A stretch of 14,535 bases of DNA from a virus (taxonomy: Duplodnaviria; Heunggongvirae; Uroviricota; Caudoviricetes). Below are positions 1 through 14,535 of the stretch, one piece after another (positions within the stretch are counted from its first letter, which is position 1; each line of letters begins with the position of its first letter). Both the position numbers and the translations under genes were made by a program. The notes beneath the pieces were generated by a model. It did not search any database. It saw nothing but the letters and a program-made list of their open reading frames with translations, and was not told the DNA's origin. Location of the stretch: the IMG/VR virus record IMGVR_UViG_2534681705_000018, positions 1 to 14,535 of that record. One strand, written 5' to 3'.

Positions 1-78
1 ATAAATCTCACTCTCGTTTTTTTTGATATCAAAATCATCTGTTTCAAAATCTTCCTCGTACTCAAAATGATCAGCCAT
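1..78 (-). CDS. 5' end of an unknown protein-coding gene running off the left edge; N-terminus MADHFEYEEDFETDDFDIKKNESEIY is strongly acidic
   Basis: ATG at 78-76 (minus) with AGAGGAG Shine-Dalgarno 6-7 nt upstream; frame stays open to position 1. Too short for the ORF track, so this is my own read. Confidence 0.3.
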   Translation of the reverse strand, partial: MADHFEYEEDFETDDFDIKKNESEIY

Positions 79-318
79 TTTTAACTCCTCTGGATAAATT
101 AAATCACAAATTTTTGTATTATAAATAACCGCATAAGCCAAATTATTTGAGATTAATAAAACATCACCAACTTCAATATCAACAAGACTTCTGTAACATG
201 TTTTACTAAATCCAATTACAAAATGAATGGACCAATATAATGATTTTTTGTCTAACACTGGAGCGTTTCCGTATTGGCAGACTGTGACTTTATCTAACCA
301 AAGATTCAATTCCCCTGT

Positions 319-684
319 TCATATTCTTATTAGTGGTTGAGCAGGGCTCAATACTCCATCAAATACTTTACCTACGTGCAAACGATTATATTTTAGTTCA
401 GGATGCTTTAGATTTAACGGGGAACTGGATAAACTGAGCCATTCCCCTATTAACCTTTCCGTTTCTGGCATTAAAGCCATCCCAGCGAGCTCAGATGAAA
501 TTAAGGGAAATATTTCTCCAAGCAATACCCATCCAGACCAGCTGCCACTCTCTTCTGCTATCGGTAACCATTTAGCACTAAATTCGGGCATTAATAATGC
601 AACATCTTCGCCATTTTCTTTCCAATTTTGAAAAGTGGTTTCAAACGTATGAGTGTTTCGATTTACTTTCCTCAGACCGAACAT
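319..684 (-). CDS. hypothetical 121-aa Trp-rich protein
   Basis: ORF-track ORF; ATG at 684 with AAGGA about 11 nt upstream; protein-like composition; no recognisable motif. Confidence 0.45.
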   Translation of the reverse strand: MFGLRKVNRNTHTFETTFQNWKENGEDVALLMPEFSAKWLPIAEESGSWSGWVLLGEIFPLISSELAGMALMPETERLIGEWLSLSSSPLNLKHPELKYNRLHVGKVFDGVLSPAQPLIRI

Positions 685-815
685 TAACTTTCATCCTTCT
701 GATCGTTTTCGAATTTGCTTTCATTTTCTTGCTCCTCATAAGGCTGATGTCGTTGTCCTTGTCGTTCATCTTGCTCAGTCAATACCCAACGTTGTGCTGT
801 AACTCATTATGAAAA

Positions 816-2426
816 CTATTTAATTCCCTCATCATTGATAAGGTTGGACATCTCTTTCAACATGAGAGTCATTGAAGCTTTCGACCAATTTAGCGGAATG
901 ATAGGGCTTGGCGCTTCATGCAAAGTTCCCGACTTGTGGATATAGTTATAGCTTTCGGGAAGTGCCATTTCAGGTACACTCCTGCCATTTGCACCAATCA
1001 TATTCTCGCCTGTTATTTGGGCCAATGATCTATTCATAAATTGCACTGAGTCATTCAAATACTCTTCCTTTCTTGATTCTTTATAAACAATTGCTGCTGA
1101 TTTTGCATACCATGAGTCAAAAAACCATTCTGCTTCTGTTGATGGAATGAAGCTCTTTTCTCTTTTCGCATGTGAATTTTGATCGGTATCGGTTTTAATA
1201 TCATTGAACCAAAAATTTGCCGACTGATAATTATCCTTCTCGTATCTTTTTATACCATACGGACCTGCTAGTTTTTTAACTATTTTTAGAACCTGCTCTT
1301 TTCTTCTGGTGTTTATCTTTGCAAGATTTGCAGGATAAATAACATTAAGTAAAGCCGCATCGGCTTCTCTGTAATGTTTATCTTTTTCCAGATAACCTGG
1401 GGATTCTCCCCCTAAATCAAGCTGTAACGTTATTCTTTCATAACCTTTATCTATGAGGTGGTTCAACCTCGTTGTTGAAAGAGGTTCATCCAGTTCATTG
1501 GCTTTAGCTTCGCGTAGTAAATCAGAGACAAAAACAGAGTCTTTCTTCGAGAGTAAGTTCGACAAACGTTCCAGTCCAGAGGTCACCAGTGCAACGGAAG
1601 ATGTGTTTAATCGGGCATCTTCTTCCCATGCTCCGGAATCTTCCATAACATAGAAATTGGCTTTATCCAGATAAGCAATCAGCAGCGCAACCGATTTTAA
1701 TCGGTCACCTTTTTGCCAATCTTCAGCGTTAATTGTATCAGTGTCGATTGCTTGTATAAGGAGATCAAGATAAAGACCTAACGCATCATTTTGTTTATGG
1801 TTCCACAGCTGCGGCTTGCCTTCTTCCTGCACATCTGCCATCACGGGGGAGTTGCTGTCAAATCGGATATGCACAACATTCATTTGCCCGGGAACTCCAT
1901 CCAGTCGTTTGGGGTTGCTAATGACGTCCTGCATTCGCTTAATCTGGTCGGGCGTAGACATATAATCCCACAGGGTGAGCAGAACCTTTTTTGCGGCTAC
2001 ACTATTTCCCTGATCTGATACTAATGCCATATAGCCCCATAAACTATCCCTCAGCCAGACAGCATCATAGTGGGTTTCTGCCGCTGTTTTGTCATCTTCG
2101 AAAGTAGAAGCAAGAATAAACGTTCCCCAGGGTTTCTCCGTCAACGTTAACTTTCGTGTGTTTTCTGTTAATGTTAGCAATCCTTGAATTTCGTCTTTGG
2201 TATAGTGGCTCTTTATTTCATTTTGTAATTTGGCTGAGTGAATCAAAAGACGATAATTAGGATACTTATCTGGATTTAACGATAAATAACTTTTATCTGT
2301 TGCTGCCCCCGTGGAATTAAGAATGTTAAATACAGATTCACTCGTCACTTCTGCCCCTGTCGCCTGGCATGTGCCGCACGAAAATATACCAGCGAGCAGA
2401 AGAGTTAATGCAGATTTCCCTTTCAT
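816..2426 (-). CDS. secreted glycoside hydrolase family 15 (glucoamylase-like) enzyme with N-terminal signal peptide
   Basis: ORF 816..2468; likely start at MKGKSALTLLLAGIFSCGTCQATG (ATG 2426; alternative ATG 2438). Matches recalled GH15 signatures: VWLRDSLWG (WxRDS), GKPQLWNHKQNDALG (GxPQ...D.AL) and SGAWEED (general-acid WEE). AT-rich gene unlike the rest of the window. Confidence 0.7.
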   Translation of the reverse strand: MKGKSALTLLLAGIFSCGTCQATGAEVTSESVFNILNSTGAATDKSYLSLNPDKYPNYRLLIHSAKLQNEIKSHYTKDEIQGLLTLTENTRKLTLTEKPWGTFILASTFEDDKTAAETHYDAVWLRDSLWGYMALVSDQGNSVAAKKVLLTLWDYMSTPDQIKRMQDVISNPKRLDGVPGQMNVVHIRFDSNSPVMADVQEEGKPQLWNHKQNDALGLYLDLLIQAIDTDTINAEDWQKGDRLKSVALLIAYLDKANFYVMEDSGAWEEDARLNTSSVALVTSGLERLSNLLSKKDSVFVSDLLREAKANELDEPLSTTRLNHLIDKGYERITLQLDLGGESPGYLEKDKHYREADAALLNVIYPANLAKINTRRKEQVLKIVKKLAGPYGIKRYEKDNYQSANFWFNDIKTDTDQNSHAKREKSFIPSTEAEWFFDSWYAKSAAIVYKESRKEEYLNDSVQFMNRSLAQITGENMIGANGRSVPEMALPESYNYIHKSGTLHEAPSPIIPLNWSKASMTLMLKEMSNLINDEGIK

Positions 2427-2734
2427 AAAATATTCCATCAATCGTTTGTTAAAAGCGTAGATAACCACTTATTTAACAACTTGAAAATAAGGTGTTTTAC
2501 CTGGGTTGTTACAAAAGGATTGCATTGCGTAAACGCTTTTTATTTACAACAAAATGGGGAAGTATTACGGCGATTGCGAAAAGTCTGAAGCGATTGAATT
2601 AAGATAATATAGAAAATCAGATACAGCAAAAATGGCAGATTGATCAGGTGAAGATAAATTGGAGCGGCGAAGGGAACAACACAACAAGCCACAAGACCAG
2701 TAATAAAGGCGCATTCGCGAGTTCTAAAATAAAT

Positions 2735-2758
2735 TCTATACACATTTCTATACACATT
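2735..2758. repeat. perfect tandem direct repeat TCTATACACATT x2
   Basis: Read directly at 2735-2746 and 2747-2758. Confidence 0.8.
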
Positions 2759-2770
2759 TATCACTCGCTT

Positions 2771-2850
2771 GGGGATTACACATCCCCTGTTAACCGTGAT
2801 CAAGCTGGTGGATGATCACGGATAAACCGATATGGGAATCCCCATATCGG
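2771..2850. promoter_or_regulatory. three consecutive perfect dyad symmetries: GGGGAT-N5-ATCCCC (2771-2787), CCGTGATCA-N10-TGATCACGG (2794-2821), CCGATATGGG-N4-CCCATATCGG (2827-2850)
   Basis: Inverted repeats read directly; non-coding; sits where composition changes from AT-rich cargo to element-like DNA. Confidence 0.6.
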
Positions 2851-2855
2851 CATCG

Positions 2856-2967
2856 CGTAGTTAATCGTAGTGGCTACCGTAGTAGCCTCCGTAGTTGAGT
2901 AGCAGGATGTAACCTGCCAGGAAGGAAATGATCGTGACTCGCCGTGACATGGCGTGATTAATCGTGA
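2856..2967. repeat. helically phased short direct repeats: CGTAGT x4 (2856, 2866, 2878, 2890) with embedded palindrome GGCTAC-cgta-GTAGCC, then CGTGA x4 at exact 10-bp spacing (2933, 2943, 2953, 2963)
   Basis: Read directly; the 10-12 bp phasing puts the motifs on one face of the helix, typical of multimeric protein-binding sites (integrase arm sites, TerS sites, iterons). Confidence 0.6.
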
Positions 2968-3000
2968 CACCAAACAAAAATCCTTACCCGTAGGCTTAAT

Positions 3001-3023
3001 GTAAGGCTTGGCTGTAGCCTTAC
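3001..3023. other. perfect 8-bp inverted repeat GTAAGGCT-N7-AGCCTTAC
   Basis: Read directly. Confidence 0.6.
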
Positions 3024-3035
3024 CGAACGCGCCGC

Positions 3036-3215
3036 TCACCGTCGCGGCCTGTCCGGTTTCCGCCACTGATACGGCCTCACATCATCATGCTGGTGGCGCT
3101 CCTGTTGCAGCACAACGGAAACAGGCGCTGAACACCTGTTAATTTTGCTTGCTGGTTGTTTGATTCCGGCAATGCTGCGGATCATCTCCAGCAAATCGGC
3201 TTCGGTGATGGTCAT
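3036..3215 (-). CDS. possible small ORF (59 aa, MTITEADLLEMIRSIAGIKQ...), unknown function
   Basis: ATG at 3215 with AAGGTG 7 nt upstream; stop at 3036-3038; not in the ORF track (under 60 aa); low support. Confidence 0.25.
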   Translation of the reverse strand: MTITEADLLEMIRSIAGIKQPASKINRCSAPVSVVLQQERHQHDDVRPYQWRKPDRPRR

Positions 3216-3245
3216 GATTTACACCTTAGGAAATCTTAGGGGGCT

Positions 3246-3518
3246 GGTTGACACTTTCCGGCTTAAGACCTTAATAAATCTTAATATCGTAGGTTGACAC
3301 ACTTGACACTTTTTCGGGAAAAACCTTAACAAAACTTAACCATCCCTGGCATTTCTAAGCATGGCAACTTGACACTTTTCGCTATTTTTTCGGCTTTTTG
3401 ACGTGGTAAATCTGGCGAAAGGCCAGTAATGGCGTGGCTTACAGCGAGGTTGACACTTTTTCGCGTTCAGAGTGTAAAGTGTCAACCTGGCAAGCTGCTC
3501 AACTTGACACTTTTTGAG
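3246..3518. repeat. array of six direct copies (one inverted) of about 14 bp, (G/C)TTGACACTTTT(T)CG
   Basis: TTGACAC at 3248, 3294, 3303, 3369, 3450, 3504 and inverted GTGTCAA at 3479; non-coding, directly 3' of the HTH gene at 3520-4047. Confidence 0.7.
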
Positions 3519-3519
3519 G

Positions 3520-4047
3520 TCATTGATGGCCTGATTTTTCCCACTCAGCCAGGGCGTTTAGTCCGGCTTCACTCCAGTTATCCAGCTCATCGGGACAATC
3601 ACCTGCAACATAGCAGAGCTCACAACGCAGCATACGAATTGCCAGCCTGGCATTTTCCCGAAAATCATACTGCTCAAAGTAATATTGCCCAGCATAATCC
3701 TCAAGGCAGATAGCACCATCATCAAGAAATTGCACTTCACAGCATAATTCCCCGGCTGCATCCTGCACACGCTGCTGTATGTCATCGTCCGTTACTGGTG
3801 CAGGGATTTTACCGTCTCTGGCCTTAACTGCTTTCCAGAACTCGCCCCACGTCATTTCCAGCGTTCTCTCTGGCCACATTTCAGAAACGGGGTTTTTTCC
3901 CTGTGCTGGTGGGCTGTTCCGCTGCTCTGTCGCTTCCACATCAATTTTTTTGCCAGACATGATCACTTCGCCTTTCTCGATCCAGTCGTAAACTGTCTGG
4001 CGGCTTACGCCTTTGTGTTTGGCATATTCTGCCTTGCTCATCAGCAT
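3520..4047 (-). CDS. HTH DNA-binding protein, 175 aa; N-terminus resembles lambda Nu1/terminase-small-subunit winged HTH; Cys-rich C-terminus; candidate packaging-redirecting or regulatory protein
   Basis: N-terminal KAEYAKHKGVSRQTVYDWIEKGE parallels recalled Nu1 KKQLADIFGASIRTIQNWQEQGMPV; C-terminal RCELCYVAGDC; ATG 4047 (or 4041) follows the upstream stop by 6 nt with GGGTGAG Shine-Dalgarno. Confidence 0.6.
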   Translation of the reverse strand: MLMSKAEYAKHKGVSRQTVYDWIEKGEVIMSGKKIDVEATEQRNSPPAQGKNPVSEMWPERTLEMTWGEFWKAVKARDGKIPAPVTDDDIQQRVQDAAGELCCEVQFLDDGAICLEDYAGQYYFEQYDFRENARLAIRMLRCELCYVAGDCPDELDNWSEAGLNALAEWEKSGHQ

Positions 4048-4053
4048 TATGAC

Positions 4054-4725
4054 TCACCCTTCTTTTTCCAGTTGAGCCAGCCGCCCGGATATTTCTTCCA
4101 GTTTTTCCAGGGCTGGCTTGCAGGCCGCATCAATAACATCCCGGACCATTCCGGCAAGCTGCTCTTCTGCTGTCGGCGTTGTTACTTCCACACCCGATGG
4201 TTTCCCTCCCTTATCCCATACACCCAGCGGTACGAGGGCAACGTGATCGATAAGAAATGGCGTACCCTCAATGACAAAATTGTCCTCGCCCATTACATCA
4301 GGAACTTCTGCCCCACCGGACGCACCACAAAACACAACCGACGGGCTGGTGGATACCTCCCCCCGGGCTTTCTGGATGTAATCGATGATTTCCTGCCCGT
4401 AAATCCGGCATACGCCCCACACCTCGTCATCGCGAATATACGGCAACATAACGGTGCCAATAATGCGCGACCGTTCGCCCACGTCTTCAATGGTTTTGCC
4501 TTCGGGATGGTCGATAATGACGGGTACTCCGGCGCAACGTTCCAGGAACTGCGGATTGAGATAAGTTTGCGGTGAACGCCAGACAAATTCTTTTTCTTCG
4601 GCGCGGTAGGCCATTCCGGTTCCTGTGATACGCAGGTTAACCAGCCACATGTTGGAGAACTGATAAGGCGACGGTAGCTGACCGTCCCGAATCTGCTTCG
4701 CCGCCTCAATTTCTGTTAAAAGCAT
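4054..4725 (-). CDS. hypothetical 223-aa protein with coiled-coil C-terminus
   Basis: ORF-track ORF; same operon and strand as neighbours; no motif recognised. Confidence 0.55.
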   Translation of the reverse strand: MLLTEIEAAKQIRDGQLPSPYQFSNMWLVNLRITGTGMAYRAEEKEFVWRSPQTYLNPQFLERCAGVPVIIDHPEGKTIEDVGERSRIIGTVMLPYIRDDEVWGVCRIYGQEIIDYIQKARGEVSTSPSVVFCGASGGAEVPDVMGEDNFVIEGTPFLIDHVALVPLGVWDKGGKPSGVEVTTPTAEEQLAGMVRDVIDAACKPALEKLEEISGRLAQLEKEG

Positions 4726-4789
4726 AATGTTATCCGGTTATAAGCAATAAGCCCCGCCAAATCCGGCAGGGCTGAACTCAGCACGTTTT

Positions 4790-5368
4790 TCATGCCCCCG
4801 CGAGGCTTGCAGTGTTAATTTTGACCAGGCGACGGGGAGGGATTTTGAAGGCGTTCAGCCAGACGTTCGGATCGCCCTGATATTCAGTAATACGACGACC
4901 AGCTTCATCCATTCTTACGGTTTTACCCAAATGGCCCGGCGTGTTTTCCACGGCCCACTGAGCACTTTCCTGAGCAGCCTTGTAAATCTGATCTTCCAGC
5001 ACCGCCAGCGTTGCAGAATCTGAAACGGAACGAATATCCACATCACTGAATTTTTTAGCCAGCTTCTGTGCGCCAATTAATGCACGCTTGCGGTAATCCA
5101 TCGACTTTTCACCAGCAAACGGGGCCGGAGCTCGACGGCCCATATTGCTGTATGCGGAATCCGCTTTAGCCTGGGCTTCTGCCAGTGAGGATTCATCTTC
5201 GACTGACGCGACGATGTTTTGATTAGCGTTATCCTCTTTTATGAAATCCTGTGCGGGGATCGCATTCAGAATTTCGATAATCTCCTGCGGAGTGCTGCCC
5301 TGCGACTCTGACAGAGCGTTAACCACCTCCATCAGTTTTAATCGCAAATCTTCTTTGCTTGCTGGCAT
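4790..5368 (-). CDS. hypothetical 192-aa protein
   Basis: ORF 4790..5377 opens on GTG; in-frame ATG at 5368 has a better Shine-Dalgarno (GAGAGGTGG). Confidence 0.55.
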   Translation of the reverse strand: MPASKEDLRLKLMEVVNALSESQGSTPQEIIEILNAIPAQDFIKEDNANQNIVASVEDESSLAEAQAKADSAYSNMGRRAPAPFAGEKSMDYRKRALIGAQKLAKKFSDVDIRSVSDSATLAVLEDQIYKAAQESAQWAVENTPGHLGKTVRMDEAGRRITEYQGDPNVWLNAFKIPPRRLVKINTASLAGA

Positions 5369-5407
5369 TTTTACCACCTCTCTTTTTTCACCAAAAAATC
5401 ACGACCA

Positions 5408-5587
5408 TCAGGCCGGACGTTCTACGGGATAAAGCGCCCGCTGCATTAAACGCCGGGCGACCTCATGAATGCTCGGAGCAATCCCCAGCGGAGAATTGCG
5501 GCGTTCCTCGTCCTGGATGCGCTGTAATGCTTCAATCTGATCACGAGCGAGTAAAACGGGTTTCACGCTGGCTTTTCTCATAGTCAT
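5408..5587 (-). CDS. small 59-aa protein (MTMRKASVKPVLLARDQIEALQRI...), possible small DNA-binding regulator
   Basis: ATG at 5587 with AGGAGA Shine-Dalgarno; first gene after the tandem terminators; assignment is tentative. Confidence 0.45.
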   Translation of the reverse strand: MTMRKASVKPVLLARDQIEALQRIQDEERRNSPLGIAPSIHEVARRLMQRALYPVERPA

Positions 5588-5605
5588 ATCTCCTGAACAA
5601 AACAA

Positions 5606-5700
5606 TGATTATGATTGCACAAACTGAAATGACGATCTACATCGTTGCAATTTATGAAACGATAACGCATGATGATCGCGTTCTTCCCATTGACTTCAAT
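5606..5700 (-). promoter_or_regulatory. promoter/operator region for the 5587->3520 operon with repeated ACGAT/ATCGT dyads and a CATAAT -10-like hexamer
   Basis: Between terminators and the first gene of the next operon; dyads GACGATctacATCGT and AACGC-N8-GCGTT read directly. Confidence 0.4.
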
Positions 5701-5704
5701 CACC

Positions 5705-5745
5705 TGAAAAACAAAGCCCGCAACACTTCTGGCTGCGGGCTTTTT
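5705..5745 (-). terminator. second, bidirectional intrinsic terminator
   Basis: 8-bp stem AGCCCGCA/TGCGGGCT (5715-5722, 5734-5741), 11-nt loop, T-runs on both sides. Confidence 0.6.
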
Positions 5746-5753
5746 ACTGGCAC

Positions 5754-5777
5754 AAAAAAGCCGGGAAAAATCCCGGC
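5754..5777 (-). terminator. Rho-independent terminator right after the PerC-like gene
   Basis: 7-bp GC stem GCCGGGA/TCCCGGC with 4-nt loop, followed on the minus strand by a 6-T run. Confidence 0.7.
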
Positions 5778-5782
5778 CTCCG

Positions 5783-6070
5783 TCACTGACTGCAATTTTT
5801 CGATCCAGGGTATTTCCTGAATGCCTTACCATTGGGCTGATGTAATCCCATCCCGGCATGTGCCCGGCTGATGGTTTCGCGCATCTCCCCGAAATTATCC
5901 TGCCGTGCTGGTGGGCGTGCTGCCTTGCGGATACATTCCGCGCGACGTTTTGCCGCCTGTTCCCGTGCCTTGTCATCATTCGCCAGCATGATGACCTCAG
6001 CCCACCGCGCCGCCGCTCTCCGGTACAGACCACGCGCTTCCAGTGCTTCCGCTTTGCTGTCGTGAATCAT
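5783..6070 (-). CDS. PerC/Pch-family transcriptional activator-like protein (95 aa)
   Basis: AEALEARGLYRRAAARWAEVIM matches the recalled PerC-family core (AEELE.KGLWRRAAARWLEVM); ATGA start/stop overlap with the upstream gene. Confidence 0.55.
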   Translation of the reverse strand: MIHDSKAEALEARGLYRRAAARWAEVIMLANDDKAREQAAKRRAECIRKAARPPARQDNFGEMRETISRAHAGMGLHQPNGKAFRKYPGSKNCSQ

Positions 6071-6609
6071 GCGCCTGTTTTCTCCCTGGCTGCCCGGCGC
6101 TGACGTTTGCGCTTCTCATTCAGCGCTACCAGCCGCGTTTCTGCGTCCTGTTGTTCCTGTGGTGTCACCTCGCCGCACGGCTGGCCTTTCAGGTCGTAGC
6201 GTACCCCACCAGCCATTAAGGCGCGGTAATAGCGCGGACACTGCGCATAAGATGCCAGCGTCGCACGTAATGCCCCTGGCCCGAATGCCAGCCCCCTGAC
6301 GGCGAGATCCTGCATCAGGTCGTCGAATATCCCCACCTTAAGCGGCTTCGGTGCTTCCCGGCTGAATAATTCAGGCCACAACTCAGTGAGGCGGTTAACG
6401 CGCCTGCGGTTTTTGCGCTGGCGCTTGGTCATATGCCGCCACGGTGTCGCCCCTGTGGGCTTCTGCTGCGCTTTCTGGTTACCGGGCATCACTTTATGCG
6501 CCGACGTGGTTTTATCCTGCTCCTGTGCCGCCTGCGTCGTTTTCTGCGGCGTGCCATAAATGCCTTTCGGTTTTCTGTTAATGGTCAGCTTAGTCATGCT
6601 TTGCCCCAT
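6067..6609 (-). CDS. ProQ/FinO-domain RNA-binding protein with a basic N-terminal extension
   Basis: LTELWPELFSREAPKPLKVGIFDDLMQDL ... YYRALMAGGVRYDLKGQPCGEVTPQEQQDAETRL parallels recalled ProQ N-terminal domain ([22 protein letters not shown] ... RVDLDGNPCGEL); likely true start ATG 6597. Confidence 0.65.
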   Translation of the reverse strand: MGQSMTKLTINRKPKGIYGTPQKTTQAAQEQDKTTSAHKVMPGNQKAQQKPTGATPWRHMTKRQRKNRRRVNRLTELWPELFSREAPKPLKVGIFDDLMQDLAVRGLAFGPGALRATLASYAQCPRYYRALMAGGVRYDLKGQPCGEVTPQEQQDAETRLVALNEKRKRQRRAAREKTGA

Positions 6610-6937
6610 CGTTTTTACTGATTATTTCATGCCCGGAACTTTCATCTACCGGATACCACGCAAATGATCCAGGTTCATCAGAAAGAATGAATTTTGTGTT
6701 TGGCAAATACATGCATTCGTAAAAACCATCTTCCTGATGATACGGTGCCATTCCATACTCACCAGTAAGAATCGGTAATATTTCAGAATAAATTTCTGAA
6801 TCACCAGAATAAAACACATCACAAATCGCCCATGCTGCAATCGGACTATACCAGTCGTTGCCATTATCATTCCTGAATTTTGCCCACCAACCCTGAACCG
6901 CTGGCGAAATATTTTTGGGTATAGCTTCAAGAAACAT
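6590..6937 (-). CDS. hypothetical 115-aa Trp/Tyr-rich protein, first gene of the ProQ/PerC operon
   Basis: ATG 6937 with strong AAGGGGG Shine-Dalgarno; 3' end overlaps ProQ-like start. Confidence 0.55.
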   Translation of the reverse strand: MFLEAIPKNISPAVQGWWAKFRNDNGNDWYSPIAAWAICDVFYSGDSEIYSEILPILTGEYGMAPYHQEDGFYECMYLPNTKFILSDEPGSFAWYPVDESSGHEIISKNDGAKHD

Positions 6938-6987
6938 ACAACCCCCTTTGCAACTCTATTTCTATAATTTCGTGATAAAAATTCCAA

Positions 6988-7290
6988 TTATTCACACTAT
7001 TCCATTTTGATTGTGAACAGTCGTGAATAGTTAGTGAACAGTTTTTTAATAACTGTTCACTATGTTTTTTAGTTTAAAATCATATGGTTATTTTGTTTCA
7101 GTGAACAGTTGAACAGTTACCCCCTATAGAATTTAATTTGCAGTGAAAATGATTCACTGTTACAAGTTACAATGCGTTTTAAAAGTTTTAGCCGAAACTG
7201 TTCACGGCGTTCATTTCGTCGATGAATCCAGTAATGACGCAGCTTTTAGAGGTGAACACTACTGTTCACCACTGTTCACCACTGTTCACT
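6988..7290. repeat. replication-origin-like iteron region: about 10 direct and inverted TGTTCAC(C) copies, an AT-rich spacer, and a perfect tandem ACTGTTCACC x3
   Basis: Direct copies at 7054, 7199, 7263, 7273, 7283; inverted at 7013, 7034, 7101, 7252; palindrome TAGTGAACAGTT/AACTGTTCACTA (7032-7062). TGTTCACC is the P4 alpha-protein type I iteron as I recall; location just 3' of the primase gene. Confidence 0.65.
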
Positions 7291-9058
7291 TTTCATGGAT
7301 TTTTGGCACAGCGGGTAACCATTCATTAGCACTGTCAGCCAGCTCCATGTTGTAGCGCATTCCGACATTGGTCTTTGCCTTCTTATACTCAGCCCCATAT
7401 TCTTTCATCACTTTTGGGAAATCTTTGCCAAAATTAGTTAGATTTAATGGCTTATCGAAACCATAAGCATCCATATATGCAAGATATGCATGGTAAAGAT
7501 AAATTCGAGGGGCTCTTGGATATATATTCAGGTTTCCCATGAACATTCCTACAGCTTCACCAAGTTCGACAATATGGTTACAAAAAGCATATAGCGGATC
7601 AGTATGGCGTTTTACTTCCATTGCTTCTTCACCATCACGTTGCTCGAGCAGTAATGTTCTTGCTTTTTCGGGATCTGAAAAATTTACCAACAGCCTACGG
7701 ACTATTACCGGAATTTCCGCTGCAATTTTTTTGGGTAAACATGTGTCCTTGTTTTCTTCCGCTATCGGATTATTGAACTGAAAAATAACCCTACGGCGTG
7801 AAATACCTCCCGCTCTTTCTGTAAAAACCATCGGTTTATTATTTGTTATCAAAACAACTGAGCGTAAGACAGTGGTGTATCTTTTTTCATATTTCGGGTT
7901 AATTTGCAGAGGATCCCCACCTGTTATAGCTTTAATACCATTACCTTCACCAAAATATTTAGGTTGGTCCGGTAAAATAATCAGACTTTTACCAACTAGT
8001 TGCTCACGTCCACCAGCATCATCTAACGCTTTCATATCACTGCCTGCGGTGTTCTGCTCACCCGCCAACATTCTGGCAATTTGAGTAAACATACTTTTAC
8101 CACTTCCACCTTCGCCAGTTGCTTCAATGAATAATTGCCAGTCGTAGCGATTAGCCAAAACCATAAACAGAGCAGCACATATCCGCTTCATCTTTGATGA
8201 ATCGTATCCTGCTGCATGTGACAGCCAACGATGAAAATGGGGCGCATGGTCATGAATATTTTCACCAGGCGCAGGTGGCGTATAATAAATTCCATTATGC
8301 GAAGTGATCCAGTGCTCTGGTGAATGAGGTAAAAATCTACCACTTGTTATGTCATAAACTCCATTTTCAAAAGGTATTATGGTGTCACTCTGTTCTCTCA
8401 TTACGGGTACAGATATTTTTAAAGCATCAACCGCATTACTAATTGCCCGCTTACTGAAATTTGTCTTGTTTTTTTCGTAAATTGATACCATTTTACGACT
8501 CAACTCCATATCAGATATTTTTTCCCACACTCCAGAACAGTATGCATAAGCAAAATTGTTACCAGGGTGAACAGCTATTTCCTCAAAGCATTCAGCCAAA
8601 AGTGAAGCTCGCTCGTTATCCGCCATTCTGGAAAGAGAGATTTTGTGTTTTTTCTCAGTCCTTCCTGACAGAATATCCCCGCGCTCTGCCTGTTCGCGGA
8701 TCCGTTGCAGGTAATCGCGCCAGTTCTCCGGTTCCCGGTCGGTGATGCCTTTGTATAATTTCGCCTCCTGTACGCCAGCCAGCGCCAGCTTTTCAGCGAT
8801 AGCATTGATCTGGATTGGTTCGATCTCCCCCGCGAGATAGACACGCGCAAAGCGGCGTTTCTCGTCAATAATGCGGATATTCGCCAGGTCTGCCAGTTGC
8901 TTTGGCCCCAGGTAAACAGGTGGTACGTTATCGCCGTGTTTTCGTCCTTCGCTTTCAATCCAGTGTTGAGCATGGGAGTAAGCGTCCGTCCCGGCAAAAA
9001 TGATTACCTCGGTGAATTTATCCTTCGGCTGATATTTTAAATTCGGTGCGTTTTTCAC
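7286..9058 (-). CDS. P4-family primase / D5-like SF3 helicase replication protein (590 aa)
   Basis: Walker A GEGGSGKS in mid-protein; overall organisation of phage/plasmid primase family; GTG start at 9058 overlaps upstream stop (GTGA). Confidence 0.8.
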   Translation of the reverse strand: MKNAPNLKYQPKDKFTEVIIFAGTDAYSHAQHWIESEGRKHGDNVPPVYLGPKQLADLANIRIIDEKRRFARVYLAGEIEPIQINAIAEKLALAGVQEAKLYKGITDREPENWRDYLQRIREQAERGDILSGRTEKKHKISLSRMADNERASLLAECFEEIAVHPGNNFAYAYCSGVWEKISDMELSRKMVSIYEKNKTNFSKRAISNAVDALKISVPVMREQSDTIIPFENGVYDITSGRFLPHSPEHWITSHNGIYYTPPAPGENIHDHAPHFHRWLSHAAGYDSSKMKRICAALFMVLANRYDWQLFIEATGEGGSGKSMFTQIARMLAGEQNTAGSDMKALDDAGGREQLVGKSLIILPDQPKYFGEGNGIKAITGGDPLQINPKYEKRYTTVLRSVVLITNNKPMVFTERAGGISRRRVIFQFNNPIAEENKDTCLPKKIAAEIPVIVRRLLVNFSDPEKARTLLLEQRDGEEAMEVKRHTDPLYAFCNHIVELGEAVGMFMGNLNIYPRAPRIYLYHAYLAYMDAYGFDKPLNLTNFGKDFPKVMKEYGAEYKKAKTNVGMRYNMELADSANEWLPAVPKIHEK

Positions 9059-9345
9059 TTCTTACCTCCCGCAACCAACATTGCCCGGATTTTTTTAATA
9101 TTCGTGGCTGCACGTCTCGCCACCGCCTGTTGTTTGTTTTCCACCAGAATAAAATCACGCTCAAACTGACGGCGCGGCATTACGCAGTCATATTCGTAAG
9201 CCTCACGGCGGTAGGTGATATTGCCTGGCGTAACGTGACGAATAACCACTCGTCCCCCACGTCTGGTGTCGCGGTAAATATCTCCGTGTCTGATTTCAGG
9301 CCGAGCGGGGCCGCTGGCAGTAAAGCCAGAATTTTTCTTTTTCAT
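9055..9345 (-). CDS. hypothetical 96-aa basic protein, coupled to the primase gene
   Basis: ATG 9345 with AGGAAA upstream; stop overlaps primase start. Confidence 0.5.
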   Translation of the reverse strand: MKKKNSGFTASGPARPEIRHGDIYRDTRRGGRVVIRHVTPGNITYRREAYEYDCVMPRRQFERDFILVENKQQAVARRAATNIKKIRAMLVAGGKK

Positions 9346-9349
9346 GGTT

Positions 9350-9550
9350 TTATTTTCCTGTCAGCAGTTCCGGTTTTATTTCCGCACGAATACAGAGTTC
9401 AGAAAAAAATTCAGGAGAACCAACAATCTCATTACTTTTCAGTCGGCATTGTGATTTCACTTTTCCTTTATCCAGGTAAACCAGTATGCGTCCGGTGAAA
9501 TCATCTGGCGCACTCAGGGTAATTGTCATTGTTGCTTGCTGATTATCCAT
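9350..9550 (-). CDS. small 66-aa protein with one copy of an FTGxxLVxxxxGxV motif; paralog of the gene at 9543-9908
   Basis: PDDFTGRILVYLDKGKV; start overlaps upstream stop by 8 nt. Confidence 0.5.
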   Translation of the reverse strand: MDNQQATMTITLSAPDDFTGRILVYLDKGKVKSQCRLKSNEIVGSPEFFSELCIRAEIKPELLTGK

Positions 9551-9908
9551 GATTCACCCCCTGAATAACCTGATAACCGCAACTGGTCAGCAATTCGATA
9601 AATTCCGGCAATGTGCCGAAACAGTAATCATCACGCAGACGTTCGCGGGATACTTCAACGCCGTTTTCGTAGTGACTCACCATGCGTCCGGTAAAATGCA
9701 GATCATCATCGTGATGGCACGTTAACGGCTTAATCAGTCGCGCACGTTCTGCCAGTTCCAGCAATGCTTCAACGCTTCCGGCAATTGCACCATCCGGCAG
9801 GTTGTAATTACGCACTATGCGCCCGTTCTCCACATGGACCAGTAGCTGCCCGGTAAATTTCTCGTCAAACTGAATGCGGTTAAGGTCGGTAAGTGACAGG
9901 TTAATCAT
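9543..9908 (-). CDS. 121-aa protein carrying two tandem copies of the same small domain
   Basis: FDEKFTGQLLVHVENGRIV and LHFTGRMVSHYENGVEV; ATG 9908 overlaps upstream stop. Confidence 0.55.
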   Translation of the reverse strand: MINLSLTDLNRIQFDEKFTGQLLVHVENGRIVRNYNLPDGAIAGSVEALLELAERARLIKPLTCHHDDDLHFTGRMVSHYENGVEVSRERLRDDYCFGTLPEFIELLTSCGYQVIQGVNHG

Positions 9909-10104
9909 GGCGTACCTCCTGACGAATACGGGCGGCGAATACCATCACGCAGCCATCAGGAGATTGCTGGCGTGCTTCCTGTTCGCTGGTGGCCTCGATG
10001 TGAATCACGCGCGGTTGTGCCGTGCTCAGAGCGATAAAACGCCAGATGTATTTATTCAGGTTGTGCGAGTCCCGCCCTTGCGGGTGTGTGGTATGATTTC
10101 TCAT
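9901..10104 (-). CDS. small 67-aa protein, first gene of the leftward operon; tentatively Icd/Kil-like
   Basis: ATG 10104 with GAGGT Shine-Dalgarno; IWRFIALSTAQ...VMVFAARIRQEV resembles my recollection of Icd-like proteins (unverified); in frame with the C-terminus of the 402-aa track ORF. Confidence 0.4.
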   Translation of the reverse strand: MRNHTTHPQGRDSHNLNKYIWRFIALSTAQPRVIHIEATSEQEARQQSPDGCVMVFAARIRQEVRHD

Positions 10105-10297
10105 AGCTACCTCGATAATCTTGCTATCGTTGGTGGTTAGAAGCTCTGCGAGTGGTAACGACACTTGCGGGGCTTTGCCTTTAAGGTGCAAGTCACCTTT
10201 GAGGGTTATGCTACTTTTAGGTGACTTGCACTTCAAGCCTTTTTTTATTTTTTTTTCTACGTATACTGAACGCCACCTAACAGTAAGGAGGCCAGTA
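10105..10297. promoter_or_regulatory. divergent promoter/operator region with 13-bp inverted repeat AGGTGCAAGTCACCT (10184-10198) / AGGTGACTTGCAC (10219-10231) and a T-rich tract (10241-10257)
   Basis: Read directly; lies between the leftward operon and a rightward gene with AAGGAGG Shine-Dalgarno; candidate -35/-10 (TTGAAG-N17-TAGCAT) on the minus strand overlaps the repeat. Confidence 0.55.
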
Positions 10298-10477
10298 ATG
10301 CCAACGGGTACAACCAACAACAAATCACAACAAAAAACGGCTAGAATCCCTCTAGAAGTTTTAAGCGAAATGAATTTGGTCAAAGAGGAAAACGAAACAG
10401 ACGCGCAGTTTATCGTTACAGCCATGCGTGGCGAGATCAAACGCCGCCAGCGCCGCAAGGCCAAAGAACAGGAGTAA
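10298..10477 (+). CDS. small 59-aa basic protein, possibly ribbon-helix-helix-like; candidate element repressor
   Basis: Near-consensus Shine-Dalgarno AAGGAGG 6 nt before ATG 10298; strand-helix-helix pattern (ARIPLEV / LSEMNLVKEEN / AQFIVTAMRGEIKRR); only clear plus-strand gene in the element. Confidence 0.5.
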   Translation: MPTGTTNNKSQQKTARIPLEVLSEMNLVKEENETDAQFIVTAMRGEIKRRQRRKAKEQE

Positions 10478-10534
10478 CCATCACCAGCGCCGTGGTGTGA
10501 GGAACTACGGTGCATCGTTTTACAGGGCAGCGCC

Positions 10535-10714
10535 ATGACCAACAAAGAATCAACCAAAACACCATCACCAACTCGTAAGAGACGACGCAAAAATATAGCG
10601 CATGAACATGAATCAGAAAGATTCGCACCTTGTTCGTTTGCTCTTGAGAAATTCCTTAAAGAGCACAGGAAAAAGCTCTCGTTGCAAACCTTGGAACGAA
10701 CCAAATCTGACTGA
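10535..10714 (+). CDS. possible 59-aa Lys/Arg-rich ORF downstream of the RHH-like gene
   Basis: ATG 10535, weak Shine-Dalgarno; followed by a plus-strand terminator; not in ORF track. Confidence 0.3.
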   Translation: MTNKESTKTPSPTRKRRRKNIAHEHESERFAPCSFALEKFLKEHRKKLSLQTLERTKSD

Positions 10715-11109
10715 TCACATTGCCCACCAGCCGCAAATGTGGCATTGTTGGTGATGCGTTCAAGTATGTAGCTTTTCCACTGGCGGCTCTCTGCGGTCGC
10801 CTTTGTTTTATCCAGAACGAAATCAGACATCAGATTGATCAGCACCTGGCGACCTGACAAAATCGCATCAGTCGCGCCACCAGCAAAATTTTTTGCTTTC
10901 CGGACAGCGTGGCCAACGATATTTTGCAGCAAAATATTCTGCATTTCTGGCGTGCTGTGGCGACGGTGATCAGCGCCTTCACATTGAACGAACTTGTCGC
11001 TAAAATTCACCCACATAGCAAACATCGCGGTGCTGTAGGTAATTCGTTCACAAAGGCGCTCCGGCAACGGGGCGCTTTCTCTTTTTGTAACGGTCAGAGC
11101 GTTACACAT
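10715..11109 (-). CDS. N-terminal part of the 402-aa track ORF (9901..11109); plausible gene of unknown function whose true 3' end is unresolved
   Basis: ATG 11109 overlaps the AntA stop (ATGTGTAA); first ~130 residues protein-like, but the middle of the 402-aa frame looks non-coding and is antisense to the plus-strand module. Confidence 0.3.
10782..10809 (+). terminator. candidate Rho-independent terminator for the rightward transcript
   Basis: GGCGGC-tctctgc-GGTCGCC stem-loop followed by TTTGTTTT. Confidence 0.4.
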
Positions 11110-11950
11110 GGCTGTTTTCCTCCATGCGACGGGCTAACCAACGCTGCGAAAGACGAATTAATTCAGCCTTCCGCTGGTGGTAGTCCTGGCCTAACTCAAT
11201 CAGCGTGATATTGCTCTGCTCAAGGTAAGAAAGGTGCTCAAGCTGCAACGTGCTCATGTGGTCGCGTGGTTCGCCTGTAATGCCGTTCGCCAGTGCCCAC
11301 TGTTTTGCAGTCATGCCACCCAGCACGATACGCGCCAGCATGTTCGCTTCCGTGGTGTAGTGGTGCTGGAGTGTGTTTTTACCCAGTTCAGCCCGGTACG
11401 CCTCCAGCGCGGCACACATTGGCTTAAAGTAGCTGGCAACTGTGATACGGGCTTTCAGTTCCCGGCGTAACGCTGCGGAACGCACTGGCGCTACCTTGTG
11501 TAGCTCCTCCTCGCATTTGATAAAGTACTGGCGAACGGCGCGGCCCTGTTCGGTACGTTCGACCATCGCCAGTTCTTTCGCCATGTTCGTGGAGATCAAA
11601 TAGTCTTCACTGCGACGATCACCGCCGCGCTTTGTTGTCCAATCAAAATCAAACTGTTCAATATTTACACTTTGGTTCCCCCGTTTCGGGGAATCAAAGT
11701 ACAAATTTTCTACAACTTCAAAATCCACGCCATTTTTAAATCCGTACTCATCAATACGTCCTTTAATCCAGGTAGTGAAATCACGGCCTACCCCGAGCGC
11801 CTTATGCAACGCTCTGGCGCTAACAATATTGGTTTCACGCCCGCCAATAACGCCGGAAATAACCGGGATAATTTCGCCAAAATTTTGCAGATTCTGGTTT
11901 TCAGGCCGAACGAAGCCCTGCCCCTGTACGGGCGTTTTTCGCAGTTTCAT
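11102..11950 (-). CDS. phage antirepressor, AntA/AntB-type N-terminal domain (282 aa)
   Basis: IPVISGVIGGRETNIVSARALHKALGVGRDFTTWIKGRIDEYGF matches recalled AntA domain pattern; AGGAG Shine-Dalgarno before ATG 11950. Confidence 0.7.
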   Translation of the reverse strand: MKLRKTPVQGQGFVRPENQNLQNFGEIIPVISGVIGGRETNIVSARALHKALGVGRDFTTWIKGRIDEYGFKNGVDFEVVENLYFDSPKRGNQSVNIEQFDFDWTTKRGGDRRSEDYLISTNMAKELAMVERTEQGRAVRQYFIKCEEELHKVAPVRSAALRRELKARITVASYFKPMCAALEAYRAELGKNTLQHHYTTEANMLARIVLGGMTAKQWALANGITGEPRDHMSTLQLEHLSYLEQSNITLIELGQDYHQRKAELIRLSQRWLARRMEENSHV

Positions 11951-12028
11951 AAAAACTCCTGCTATCGAATTAAGTTACTTTTATTTGCTGGTGGATAGCT
12001 GGGGGCTTCTGGCCCCGTAGCCATTTAA

Positions 12029-12226
12029 TCAGGTAGCTGTTCCGCGTGATTCAGCAATACGCTGATTAATCCACTCGTCAATTTCACTCTCAACGAAAGC
12101 AATCGCTCGCGAGCCAATTTTAACTGATGCAGGAAATTTACCTTGCCCCATAAGGCGATAAATCCATGCCTTGCTATATCCAGTTCTACGCTGAACTTCC
12201 GTTAAACGAATAAGCGTATTTGACAT
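12029..12226 (-). CDS. alpA: AlpA/Vis-family phage transcriptional regulator or excisionase-like HTH protein (65 aa)
   Basis: IRLTEVQRRTGYSKAWIYRLMGQGKFPASVKIGSRAIAFVESEIDEWI is the typical AlpA-family winged HTH; GAGGT Shine-Dalgarno; family-level assignment only. Confidence 0.8.
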   Translation of the reverse strand: MSNTLIRLTEVQRRTGYSKAWIYRLMGQGKFPASVKIGSRAIAFVESEIDEWINQRIAESRGTAT

Positions 12227-12294
12227 ATATTTACCTCATAACGTCTACTCAATTTGACGAGGTAATCATGGCACAGAAATAACGAATATTTTCA

Positions 12295-12444
12295 TACCCT
12301 CAGGCCTAATGGTAATCGGGAATATTTTTACCCTAAGGGTAATAGTAAAATTGATGGGAAAGCATACAAAAATACCCTAAGGGTGAGGTCTGATTACCCT
12401 TAGGGTGAGACGCGAACAAAACATGAGATACCACTAGGGTAAGG
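12295..12444. promoter_or_regulatory. array of five copies of palindromic motif TACCCT(A/T)AGGGT(A/G) immediately upstream of alpA
   Basis: Copies at 12295 (degenerate), 12328-12343, 12373-12385, 12394-12410, 12429-12444; each an inverted repeat TTACCC-N3-GGGTAA. Confidence 0.7.
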
Positions 12445-12446
12445 CT

Positions 12447-13193
12447 TCATCGTTTGATAGGACAGGCGACAAGCTCAATAGATGCGGCCTGTCGGGAGGT
12501 AAAACCTCGTTTTTCAAGCTCAGTAGTAATCGCGCCCTGGTTTCCCCTGGTGGCGCGCTCATTTTCCGGATCGTAATTGGCCCACTCTCTGTTTCTAATC
12601 TCGATAGCCAGATACAATGGGTCATCATCTCTGTATTTATTTAATAGAATTGGACGTTCGCTTTCGAGTTTGCGGATTTGCTCTTTAAGTGAAGAAATTT
12701 CCGCAAGTAACACTTCAATATTCTGTTCATCATCCAGAAACTCATTATCAACCACATCAGAAGTTGGTAGAGTTATTTCACTTAATGGTAAAAATAAATC
12801 AATGCCTATTTTCTCTGCAAATTCTTTAAGTTCTGCACGACGAAACCCATGCTTATCAAAAAGGCTTGCCGACCATCTTACATCACAATTTTGAAAAGGT
12901 GCGAATAATGCTATAGGCACACTATTTCTTTCACGAATAACTTCCAGGAGGTCTGTTAAAGTAGGGGCACTATTATATTGATTGGAAAGATCGACATATG
13001 TTGATTCAATAGTACCGGCAATACCTTGCTTAACCCATTCAGGAAGTTCAATCGCACATTCTTTCAAGTAAAGAAAATCTGCAATCTGTGAATAACTAAC
13101 ATGCGGTTGATGTAATTGAATACGAGTTATCAACTCCCTCAGGCTAATAAACTCCCACTCCCTTGCTTTAAGCACTTCGGCAATATCAATCAT
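12447..13193 (-). CDS. hypothetical 248-aa protein between integrase and alpA, coiled-coil near C-terminus
   Basis: Track ORF 12447..13274 opens on GTG; ATG 13193 has GAGGTG Shine-Dalgarno 7 nt upstream; no motif recognised. Confidence 0.55.
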   Translation of the reverse strand: MIDIAEVLKAREWEFISLRELITRIQLHQPHVSYSQIADFLYLKECAIELPEWVKQGIAGTIESTYVDLSNQYNSAPTLTDLLEVIRERNSVPIALFAPFQNCDVRWSASLFDKHGFRRAELKEFAEKIGIDLFLPLSEITLPTSDVVDNEFLDDEQNIEVLLAEISSLKEQIRKLESERPILLNKYRDDDPLYLAIEIRNREWANYDPENERATRGNQGAITTELEKRGFTSRQAASIELVACPIKR

Positions 13194-13320
13194 ACGCACA
13201 CCTCGGCGTCCTCTGTAGTGGTGGCTGTGCCAGCCCGCAGAGGTGTACGGGTTTTCAGGAGCGACCCTAGACACAGCCTTTTCTTAATCGCTCAAAGTCT
13301 ACTACTGTATACTCAACCAG

Positions 13321-14535
13321 TCACCCGCATTTTCCGAACTCACCATGCACCACATTTCCGCCATGCTCGAGCGAATCCATATAGTCGGCATACCACTGGA
13401 GCATCTCCCGGCGACCATCCAGATATTGCGCATGGTTGTATGTGCCACGAATTGAGTTTTTATCGACGTGTGCGAGCTGTGTCTCTATCCACGCGGTGTT
13501 ATAGCCCTGCTCATGCAAAATGGTGCTCATGGTGTGCCGGAATCCATGACCAGTAACGCGCCCGGCATAGCCGATACGACGAATGAGCACATTCATCGCC
13601 ATTTCACTCATTGGCTTACTGTGGTGAATACGACCGGGGAAAATAAACTGATACTGGCCTGTCATGTTTTTTAACTGCTCCAGTATTTTTATCGCCTGTT
13701 CTGGTAATGGCACACAATGCGGACGGCGCATCTTCATTCGTTCTTTAGGCACTTCCCACAAACGATTATCAAAATCGATCTCCAGCCATTCTGCCTGCCG
13801 TAATTCCCCGGGTCTGACACCTGTCAGAATTAATAGCCGCATTGCCAGTTTGACGATCTGGCTTCCGGTGTACGTATTAAAAACGCGGAAAAATTCCGGC
13901 AGTTCGTCGGCTTTCAAATAGGCGTAATGCTCTTTTTTATGTGGAGCAAATGCGCTCACCAGGTCAGGGGCTGGATTATATTCGGCGCGTCCGGTGATGA
14001 TTGCGTACCGGAACACCTCGCCGCATCGCTGGCGAACCTTACGCAATTTTTCAGTCGCACCACGGTCATTAAGACGGGAAAGAACCGCCAGCAATTCCAT
14101 CGGCTTAATTTCTGCGATCGGCCTACCGCCAATGTACGGAAAAACATCTTTTTCAAACGTCTCGATCATTTCCTCGGCGTATGACGATGACCACCTGTCG
14201 ATCCGCTTTTCGTACCATTCGCGAGCAATACCCTCAAAAGTATTGCCAAATTTGCTCGCCTGTTCTCGCTTTTGGGCTTTTCTGGCCTCACTTGGATTTA
14301 TACCACCAGCAAGAAGCCTTTTAGCCTCATCCCTTGCCGCCCTGGCATCAGACAGAGACACATCAGGGTATACCCCCAACGACAACATTTTGGGCTTTCC
14401 TGCAAACCTGTAGCGCAGTCGCCACCCTTTCGAACCGTTCGGCTCAATGAGCAACGAAAGCCCGTTACCGTCATTGAGTGTATAAGCCTTTTCTTTCGGC
14501 TTCGCGCGCCTGATGGCAAGGTCTGAAAGCAGCAT
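13321..14535 (-). CDS. int: P4-type tyrosine integrase (site-specific recombinase), 404 aa, start at or just beyond the right edge
   Basis: N-terminal arm-binding-like region (LSDLAIRRAKPKEKAYTLNDGNGLSLLIEPNGSKGWRLRYRF); C-terminal catalytic boxes HGFRHT and RGTYNHAQY (tyrosine nucleophile). Confidence 0.9.
   Translation of the reverse strand: MLLSDLAIRRAKPKEKAYTLNDGNGLSLLIEPNGSKGWRLRYRFAGKPKMLSLGVYPDVSLSDARAARDEAKRLLAGGINPSEARKAQKREQASKFGNTFEGIAREWYEKRIDRWSSSYAEEMIETFEKDVFPYIGGRPIAEIKPMELLAVLSRLNDRGATEKLRKVRQRCGEVFRYAIITGRAEYNPAPDLVSAFAPHKKEHYAYLKADELPEFFRVFNTYTGSQIVKLAMRLLILTGVRPGELRQAEWLEIDFDNRLWEVPKERMKMRRPHCVPLPEQAIKILEQLKNMTGQYQFIFPGRIHHSKPMSEMAMNVLIRRIGYAGRVTGHGFRHTMSTILHEQGYNTAWIETQLAHVDKNSIRGTYNHAQYLDGRREMLQWYADYMDSLEHGGNVVHGEFGKCG

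Follow-up and report, generated by a model that had tools for sequence, protein, structure and literature searches.

What purpose is served by a stretch of about 300 bp in which a tandem repeat, several dyads and two four-copy arrays of short direct repeats are packed together? This question is raised by positions 2735-3030 of the viral DNA analysed here (IMG/VR record IMGVR_UViG_2534681705_000018, positions 1 to 14,535), the whole 14,535 nucleotides of which are referred to as the window. The repeat cluster constitutes the integrase-distal end of an approximately 12-kb phage satellite of the phage-inducible chromosomal island (PICI) type, which is inserted at the Escherichia coli tRNA-Gly gene glyU. 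The explanation that we consider best overall, and somewhat better than evenly balanced, is that this distal end is a stack of four unrelated layers, namely, a copy of the att core, a doublet of probable integrase sites, an end module common to many PICIs, and the two short-repeat arrays, which are accessory and may mimic the iterons of a replication origin.

The left part of the window is chromosomal, with the open reading frame (ORF) at 816..2468 on the minus strand encoding the GH15 protein YgeQ and adjoining the ETT2 secretion-system genes. In a comparison with empty-site E. coli genomes (more than 5200 complete genomes), the match to the window ended at about 2676, overlapping an annotated tRNA-Gly at this point. 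A displaced 3'-end fragment of glyU, TGGAGCGG-CGAAGGGAA, is located at 2661..2677 on the minus strand and is identified by sequence comparison as a copy of the att core; because this fragment marks the core at the distal element boundary, the region is the distal attachment arm, the integrase being at the opposite end (13321-14535). An earlier reading of the letters alone, hereafter the original prediction, had suggested such an arm and called for a comparison of empty and occupied sites, which has now mapped the element end to tRNA-Gly. Its view that the AT-rich side represents element cargo has to be abandoned: the GC content climbs across 2700-3150, from approximately 0.36-0.41 to approximately 0.53, and the AT-rich side is the chromosomal ygeQ-glyU region. 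The element extends from about 2678 to just past 14535, and the repeat cluster begins about 60 bp inside its integrase-distal end. The intact tRNA-Gly was found in strain SA31-1, 165 bp past the integrase start; this strain is 93% identical to the window over 2500-3500, and its integrase region is 98% identical over the aligned three-quarters. The displaced fragment has one G fewer (GCGG-CG) than the intact tRNA and than a 99.6%-identical metagenomic copy (L054, 3394-3412). In that metagenomic copy, the satellite end abuts another island and not ygeQ, and a tandem array of elements at glyU may be present.

All of the described features, namely, the 12-mer in tandem, the dyads and the two arrays of four copies, were recovered at the coordinates given for them, and they exceed chance expectation. 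Tandem Repeats Finder reported the 12-mer TTCTATACACAT in 2.2 copies at 2734-2759 with 100% matches. CGTAGT starts at 2856, 2866, 2878 and 2890 (spacings of 10, 12 and 12 bp), and CGTGA starts at 2933, 2943, 2953 and 2963, with a spacing of exactly 10 bp; none of 300 first-order Markov simulations of the window reached a cluster of four within 40 bp for either motif, the simulated maxima being 2 and 3. The dyads comprise a small hairpin-type GGGGAT-N5-ATCCCC at 2771-2787 (feature 2770..2787), CCGTGATCA-N10-TGATCACGG at 2794-2821, with 13-nt arms and one mismatch, a perfect palindrome at 2827-2850, GTAAGGCT-N7-AGCCTTAC at 3001-3023, and a smaller GGCTAC-CGTA-GTAGCC within the CGTAGT array. The dyads themselves stand as predicted, but their perfection is specific to this allele; elsewhere, the module occurs in imperfect versions, the changes in which are uncompensated. 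A promoter consensus scan of 2450-3550 found none, and an Rfam scan gave no match in the repeat region, its only hit being an int-alpA RNA at 13210-13277. The ORF at 2800..3066 on the minus strand is ruled out as coding by indels among alleles.

In the layer next to the core, a leader, AAAATAAATT, is followed by two copies of the 12-mer at 2726..2759 on the plus strand, and this doublet (2734-2759) is probably the P'-arm set of integrase arm-type sites. It is a candidate because it recurs beside int and is exchanged on both arms where the integrase differs. In SA31-1, the int-proximal arm carries the same leader and a CTATAC(A/G)C doublet (AAAATAAATT..CTATACGCATTACTATACAC); the int-adjacent copies read CTATACGCAT and CTATACACTT, together with an inverted TGTGTATAG that overlaps the int ATG. 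The doublet is 58 bp from the core edge, within the limit of about 150 bp set for arm-type sites, and doublet centres are 78 bp from the core centre on the distal side and 128 bp on the int side (centres of the identity block and of the doublets). Five att types have five different tandem doublets at the equivalent distal position, namely, TTCTATACACAT twice in the glyU type, ATTAACTACACC twice in the abgR/smrA type, GGATACCTATAGGATACC in the tRNA-Ile type, ACTGACCACACA twice in the thiM type, and GTACCCCCAA twice at the site in strain RM9088. The three types of which the int-side arm was read have their doublet on both arms, and in the abgR/smrA and tRNA-Ile types the identical doublet is also found beside their own int (exact matches of 26 and 24 nt, respectively). 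The protein expected to bind the doublet is the tyrosine integrase on the minus strand (Pfam PF13356, PF22022 and PF00589), which has an N-terminal Arm-DNA-bind_3 domain; an integrase tetramer would use these domains to link four half-sites with the core.

In the alignments, the GGGGAT-N5-ATCCCC dyad was confined to arms of the glyU type. To the right of about 2790, integrase specificity is lost, and the sequence is common to elements of at least five att types. This next layer is an end module, the first half of which is the dyad TTAACCGTGATCA/TGATCACGGATAA at 2790..2825 with the Chi octamer GCTGGTGG in its spacer (2804-2811, plus strand), and the second half of which is the palindrome CCGATATGGG-AATC-CCCATATCGG at 2827..2850. 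More than 300 genomes contain a 65-bp stretch with both large dyads, placed at the distal end of PICIs that differ greatly from one another and occupy many att sites; among them are classical cos PICIs (with genes for TerS and capsid), PICIs that form capsids and have TerL, and the family of the window itself. The module is also near one end in 18 IMG/VR satellite contigs. When 26 distinct PICI ends, associated with many integrases, were aligned, the conserved pattern was TATCCG..AT.A-AGCTGGTGG-ATGATCACGGATAA-CCG.TATGGG.ATCCCCATATCGGCATC. Both large dyads are built from the 9-mer CCGWKATSR in alternating orientation, with four copies here and none elsewhere in the element. The left arm of the 2790..2825 dyad varies among alleles without compensation, and because other alleles are imperfect with no compensating changes, a protein site is a likelier function for the module than a hairpin; the 9-mer copies are probably bound by a protein common to PICIs. 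Variants of the palindrome were also found in intergenic DNA of the unrelated E. coli phages B2 (L007, 2490-2545) and PPompW prophages (L008, 2495-2530). The B2 copy is flanked by a direct repeat of approximately 25 bp and appears insertion-like. The palindrome was rejected as a phage cos site because the phage copies are intergenic and not at cos.

The Chi octamer is near-invariant among the 26 PICI ends and changed in four alleles, a conservation that is partly by construction because 18 source loci were retrieved with a 22-mer inside the stretch, Chi included. The element as a whole contains 13 exact Chi sites (eight on the plus and five on the minus strand) between 2804 and 14310, all inside the satellite and corresponding to approximately one per 0.9 kb, against 0.37 expected from shuffles. 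In cos-type PICIs, the cos site is directly to the right of the end module, such that the module is just outside cosN. Judged from the established behavior of RecBCD and of lambda packaging, the Chi at 2804-2811 has the orientation in which it would be recognized by, and would stop, RecBCD entering at the unpackaged, terminase-cut end, and we infer a protective role.

The arrays differ from these two layers in their distribution. CGTAGT is repeated four times at 2856..2895 and CGTGAY four times at 2932..2969, both on the plus strand and both iteron-like in form, the latter with its phasing of exactly 10 bp; the spacer between them (2896..2931) contains a small dyad, GCAGG-N6-CCTGC, and tolerates indels, with variants of +1 and +3 nt. 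Both arrays (2855-2966) were present in 25 of 5426 E. coli genomes. Strain ECamp52, in which neither the att site nor the flanking genes differ, carries a sieB cassette in place of 2855-2966 (locus L002), three loci (L012, L013 and L048) have another 150 bp instead of the CGTGA array and lack one CGTAGT unit, and L053 has the CGTAGT array alone, the CGTGA array having been swapped out. In L011, a gene for a SEFIR-domain protein begins inside the slot, and the arrays have decayed in this locus and in L010. The CGTAGT array occurs with five att types, including some relatives with no CGTGA array, and between SA31-1 and the window it differs at one of 40 positions, the region overall being about 9% divergent. 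Among the Klebsiella and Pantoea relatives of the satellite's 175-aa protein, no counterpart of the arrays or of the end module was seen downstream of the small ORF. Since sibling elements carry sieB, a SEFIR-domain gene or other DNA in the slot, the comparison of loci identifies both arrays as accessory cargo that is dispensable for integration. Variable hotspots of anti-phage cargo are known for P4-like satellites.

The slot is followed at 2968..3035, on the minus strand, by terminator-like hairpins and a T-run, GGATTTTTGTTTGG, downstream of the 59-aa ORF that is the last gene. The 3001-3023 dyad, its neighbor and the T-run (2968-2976) come just after this ORF on the minus strand, and which of the two hairpins is retained differs between alleles. 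The putative terminator had a fold energy that was not significant, and the sole terminator-like consensus match in 2450-3550 lies outside the region; a late-operon terminator is nevertheless plausible at 2968-3035.

What the arrays themselves may do is a separate matter. We tentatively favor the view that the CGTGAY array is an initiator decoy or an origin mimic, because anti-phage genes are what the slot contains in other cases and because, judged by the definition of the iterons of a very common phage origin, the array qualifies as well as real ones do. When viral contigs were scanned for CGTGAY-N4-CGTGAY-N4-CGTGAY, the dominant class among the matches listed was that of lambdoid phages, with the sequence ...TTATCTTTATCTG-TCGTGACTCG-TCGTGACATGTG-CGTGACATTT-CGTGACGCGC-CGTGAC... 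inside the replication-initiator (O-type) gene, which has a cII-like gene on one side and a P-like or DUF977 gene on the other. The lambda origin is likewise positioned within gene O. An O-like gene was at or beside the array in 67 of 120 viral matches, among those listed; seven sequenced E. coli phages, including Tritos, Evi and 689R5, have CGTGAC iterons, with the gene annotated as 'DNA replication protein O' in four records, and the phage module occurs in 2036 of 5426 E. coli genomes (38%). The array of the window, TCGTGACTCGC-CGTGACATGG-CGTGATTAAT-CGTGACA, has the motif, phasing and copy number of phage origins, and its four CGTGAY units at 10 bp fall within a definition of at least 3-5 CGTGAC direct repeats at 10-11 bp. 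In some phages, the same O-type gene contains, approximately 281-306 bp away, a further cluster of iterons that includes a CGTAGTGAC unit (L100, 7200-7300; L071, 6386-6440 and 6667-6720).

As a mechanism, the CGTGAY array, and perhaps also the CGTAGT array, would mimic the origin iterons of lambdoid phages with five CGTGAC units at 10-11 bp in the O-type gene. After induction, amplification of the satellite would allow the arrays to soak up the phage initiator, an interference by titration comparable to iteron incompatibility; alternatively, the arrays may recruit the phage initiator for the benefit of the satellite itself. Plasmid-borne oop with ori-lambda iterons has been reported to exclude rep-lambda phages (Hayes et al., 2012; PMC3349717). 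In its full form, the proposal is that the array is a protein-free anti-phage defense that would titrate the phage initiator and thereby halt replication of the phage, or that the initiator is used as a signal or engine of the satellite, with CGTAGT acting likewise on a second type of initiator; in this extended form, we regard it as rather doubtful.

Several points weigh against the decoy or mimic and the layered scheme of which it is a part. Mutations (CATGA and GATGA) affect two of the four CGTGA units both in SA31-1 and in strain 357900, and therefore purifying selection on this array is not evident. The TTATCT-rich flank of phage origins is missing, the array is not in an initiator gene, and the element has no such initiator gene. 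The best local alignment of the spacers looks close, but approximately 20% of random-spacer arrays equal it against 154 phage arrays. CGTAGT iterons were not encountered in any E. coli phage, four viral scans returning mostly coding repeats or unrelated metagenomic iteron-like arrays. Classical cos PICIs carry four to five GTCAC copies at 10 bp beside cosN, and such an array may therefore be read just as naturally as a site for a packaging protein. The assignment of the terminator is weak, and all of the proposed protein sites (arrays, doublet and dyads) are putative. That the CGTGAY array descends from the origin of a phage is not supported statistically; a shared signature is claimed, not descent. 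BLAST of the array region against phages and plasmids returned no homolog, with no match in 50,697 phage records. In favor of an iteron signature, one O-like initiator gene in a non-E. coli prophage contains CCGTAGTGACTA three times at 12 bp. Many metagenomic phages have non-coding CGTAGT arrays.

Among the alternatives to an initiator decoy, the one that survives best is a relic devoid of function: the arrays would be a remnant of DNA from a phage or satellite, stranded in a slot that is prone to recombination and now drifting, which is possible, if on the improbable side. The rarity of the arrays, the highly variable content of the slot, the mutated motif positions in SA31-1, the decay in L010 and L011, and a likeness to phage arrays that is not significant beyond the motif are all consistent with drift. 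However, the arrays have become distributed over at least five att types, the CGTGA array retains its exact 10-bp register without indels next to a spacer that has them, and the CGTAGT array is better conserved than the region overall.

We consider it unlikely that the arrays are a packaging recognition site, either pac- or cosB-like, on which a winged-helix, small-terminase-like protein of the satellite or its helper would assemble and direct cleavage between or beside them. The two repeat clusters around a spacer resemble the P1 pac site, and the neighboring 175-aa protein has an N-domain with a winged helix-turn-helix (wHTH) of the excisionase/Nu1 type. The arrays also sit where classical PICIs have cos, just inside the shared end module (see also PMC10111431), which is where the GTCAC repeats occur. 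On the other hand, most relatives with the same 175-aa and 59-aa genes have no arrays, no phage among the records searched carries the array sequence, and the repeats that accompany the 175-aa protein from genus to genus are the TTGACAC/TTTACAC repeats at 3218-3420 and not the CGTAGT and CGTGA arrays. There is also no significant resemblance to the cos region of classical PICIs and no cosN of the lambda or PICI type, a search for GGGCGGCGACCT or its PICI variant with two to three mismatches allowed having given no match. A cos site of lambda, P2 or PICI was rejected for lack of a cosN-like sequence, and an inverted classical PICI cosB was rejected because no significant similarity was found. 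In the classical cos PICIs of E. coli (L020, L035, L044 at about 4420-4455, and L045), the GTCAC units are spaced at exactly 10 bp and come after cosN and an AT-rich stretch and before the last ORF; these arrays are candidate cosB elements read by Rpp-TerS. In other PICIs, GCGGGTTA repeats take the same position.

It is more improbable still that the arrays are head-to-tail sites for a wHTH protein of directionality or regulation (AlpA or the 175-aa protein). On this view, binding would either bend a P' arm of extended length or, once the element is circular, regulate transcription that crosses attP into int. A set of four direct repeats spaced at 10-12 bp is the pattern bound by proteins with the Xis/BldC fold, the N-domain of the 175-aa protein matches the folds of Pukovnik Xis and BldC, the element encodes two such proteins, and the 59-aa ORF, the arrays, attP and int would be colinear on one strand in the excised circle. 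While the phasing is that of an Xis or AlpA array, the position and the presence in all elements that share the factor are not: the arrays are 180-300 bp from the core, outside the arm-type sites and not between these sites and the core, siblings with the same int and alpA have no arrays, and neither motif forms a cluster elsewhere in the element.

The proposal of the original prediction that CGTAGT and CGTGA are integrase arm-type sites, which drew on short phased direct repeats inside an att arm and an integrase with an arm-binding domain, appears very improbable, because the arrays are near-identical across at least five att sites and integrases, are absent from every int-proximal arm read, are replaced by sieB in same-integrase siblings, and lie outside the 12-mer doublet, which satisfies every comparative expectation better.

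The remainder of the element has the layout of a Gram-negative PICI and fits the PICI zones described in PMC10111431. Besides the integrase, it encodes AlpA (12029..12226), an AntA/Bro-type protein, a DUF4222 protein, a ProQ/FinO protein and a primase-helicase of the D5/DUF927 type (7286..9058), and the int-alpA RNA motif (Rfam RF02996; minus strand, 47 bits, above the gathering score) is just downstream of int. The replication origin of the satellite is at 7013-7289, directly downstream of the primase-helicase gene, and consists of ACTGTTCAC iterons (eight exact and four with one mismatch) in two sets around AT-rich DNA; this motif is the P4 type-I iteron core (TGTTCACC), and PICI origins with the same organization have been described (PMC6092414). 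The repeat cluster was rejected as the satellite's own origin because there are no P4-type iterons in 2735-3030. The late zone terminates in the 175-aa ORF and the 59-aa ORF (3036..3215, minus strand), the latter annotated in relatives and represented in Klebsiella and Pantoea by homologs of 61-62 aa with the C-terminal motif WRKP..RR in common.

The 175-aa protein gave a confident structural model (predicted local distance difference test, 89.7). It was rejected as Rpp or TerS because it has no sequence match to solved structures and only its N-domain, with the excisionase fold, matches. After its gene, 3218-3420 contains four TTGACAC(TTT) repeats, one TTTACAC and CTTAA repeats, and this region is probably the binding field of the protein, as an operator or a packaging site. 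GTT(G/T)ACACTT, in both orientations, occupies the equivalent region in Klebsiella, Pantoea and Serratia relatives (L039, 4517-4700; L042, 4529-4700; L043, 4526-5030). In Klebsiella loci L038-L040, the homolog of the 175-aa protein is found among phage tail and capsid genes, once beside a fragment of a major-capsid gene, and tail-tip genes (Dit-like, Pam3_gp18 and Apex) are also present there; these loci resemble the helper-embedded configuration of PMC10111431. The adjacent ORFs at 4054-4725 and 4790-5377, on the minus strand, match different parts of one 545-position PHROG profile, phrog_6216, the former also matching DUF2213 and, weakly, a head-maturation-protease family, which indicates either a split gene or a different gene arrangement.

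If initiator mimicry is correct, non-coding iteron mimics would represent satellite cargo aimed at the replication of a helper or rival phage, which to our knowledge has not been described and may be tested. The end module, with a conserved Chi in many E. coli PICIs, suggests that satellites guard cut DNA ends against RecBCD. The attachment arm of a PICI is here cleanly dissected, and arm recognition by PICI-family integrases becomes directly testable.

Among known systems, the cargo hotspots of P4-like satellites are similar in that one flanked slot holds alternative cargo (sieB or a SEFIR-domain gene) in otherwise similar elements, whereas the slot here holds non-coding repeat arrays alone. 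The cos of EcCICFT073-type PICIs, with its divergent cosB read by Rpp-TerS (PMC6092414; PMC6739421), shares the position at the distal end inside the shared module and the short phased repeats; in contrast, the present locus has no resemblance to cosN or cosQ and no Rpp or DUF1441 gene, and its arrays are dispensable in siblings. The origin iterons in the O genes of lambdoid phages are also direct repeats with helical phasing, and the CGTGAC motif is identical to that in the O genes of Tritos, Evi and 689R5, but the array of the window is non-coding and outside an initiator gene, with no TTATCT or AT-rich flank and no oop-like RNA.

The arm-type sites in attP of lambda and P4 are likewise short direct repeats in both arms, separate from the core and presumed to be bound by an N-terminal arm-binding domain, and one inverted copy covers the int start, as in autoregulated int genes. 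The sites here are deduced from comparison of DNA, and unlike in lambda their spacing and tandem-pair layout are those of PICIs rather than of P1/P2/P'1-3. The closest parallel is with helper-embedded PICIs (HE-PICIs), for which a doubled motif, tgTGTATTGCantgTGTATTGCa, has been reported at 81 and 132 bp from the attP centre and described as unique to this group (Tommasini, Mageeney and Williams, 2023; PMC10111431). In both cases, a tandem unit of 11-12 bp is found in two co-oriented copies flanking the core at approximately 80 and 130 bp (78 and 128 bp here), and the sequences are also alike, with ATGTGTATAGAA twice on the reverse strand here, where the DNA reads ATGTGTATAGAAATGTGTATAGAA, against tgTGTATTGCa twice in HE-PICIs. 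The difference is that we found five different doublet sequences in chromosomal PICIs (glyU, abgR/smrA, tRNA-Ile, thiM and one further site), such that the doubled motif of attP is no longer confined to helper-embedded PICIs but also occurs in several types of chromosomal PICI, each with a sequence matched to its own integrase.

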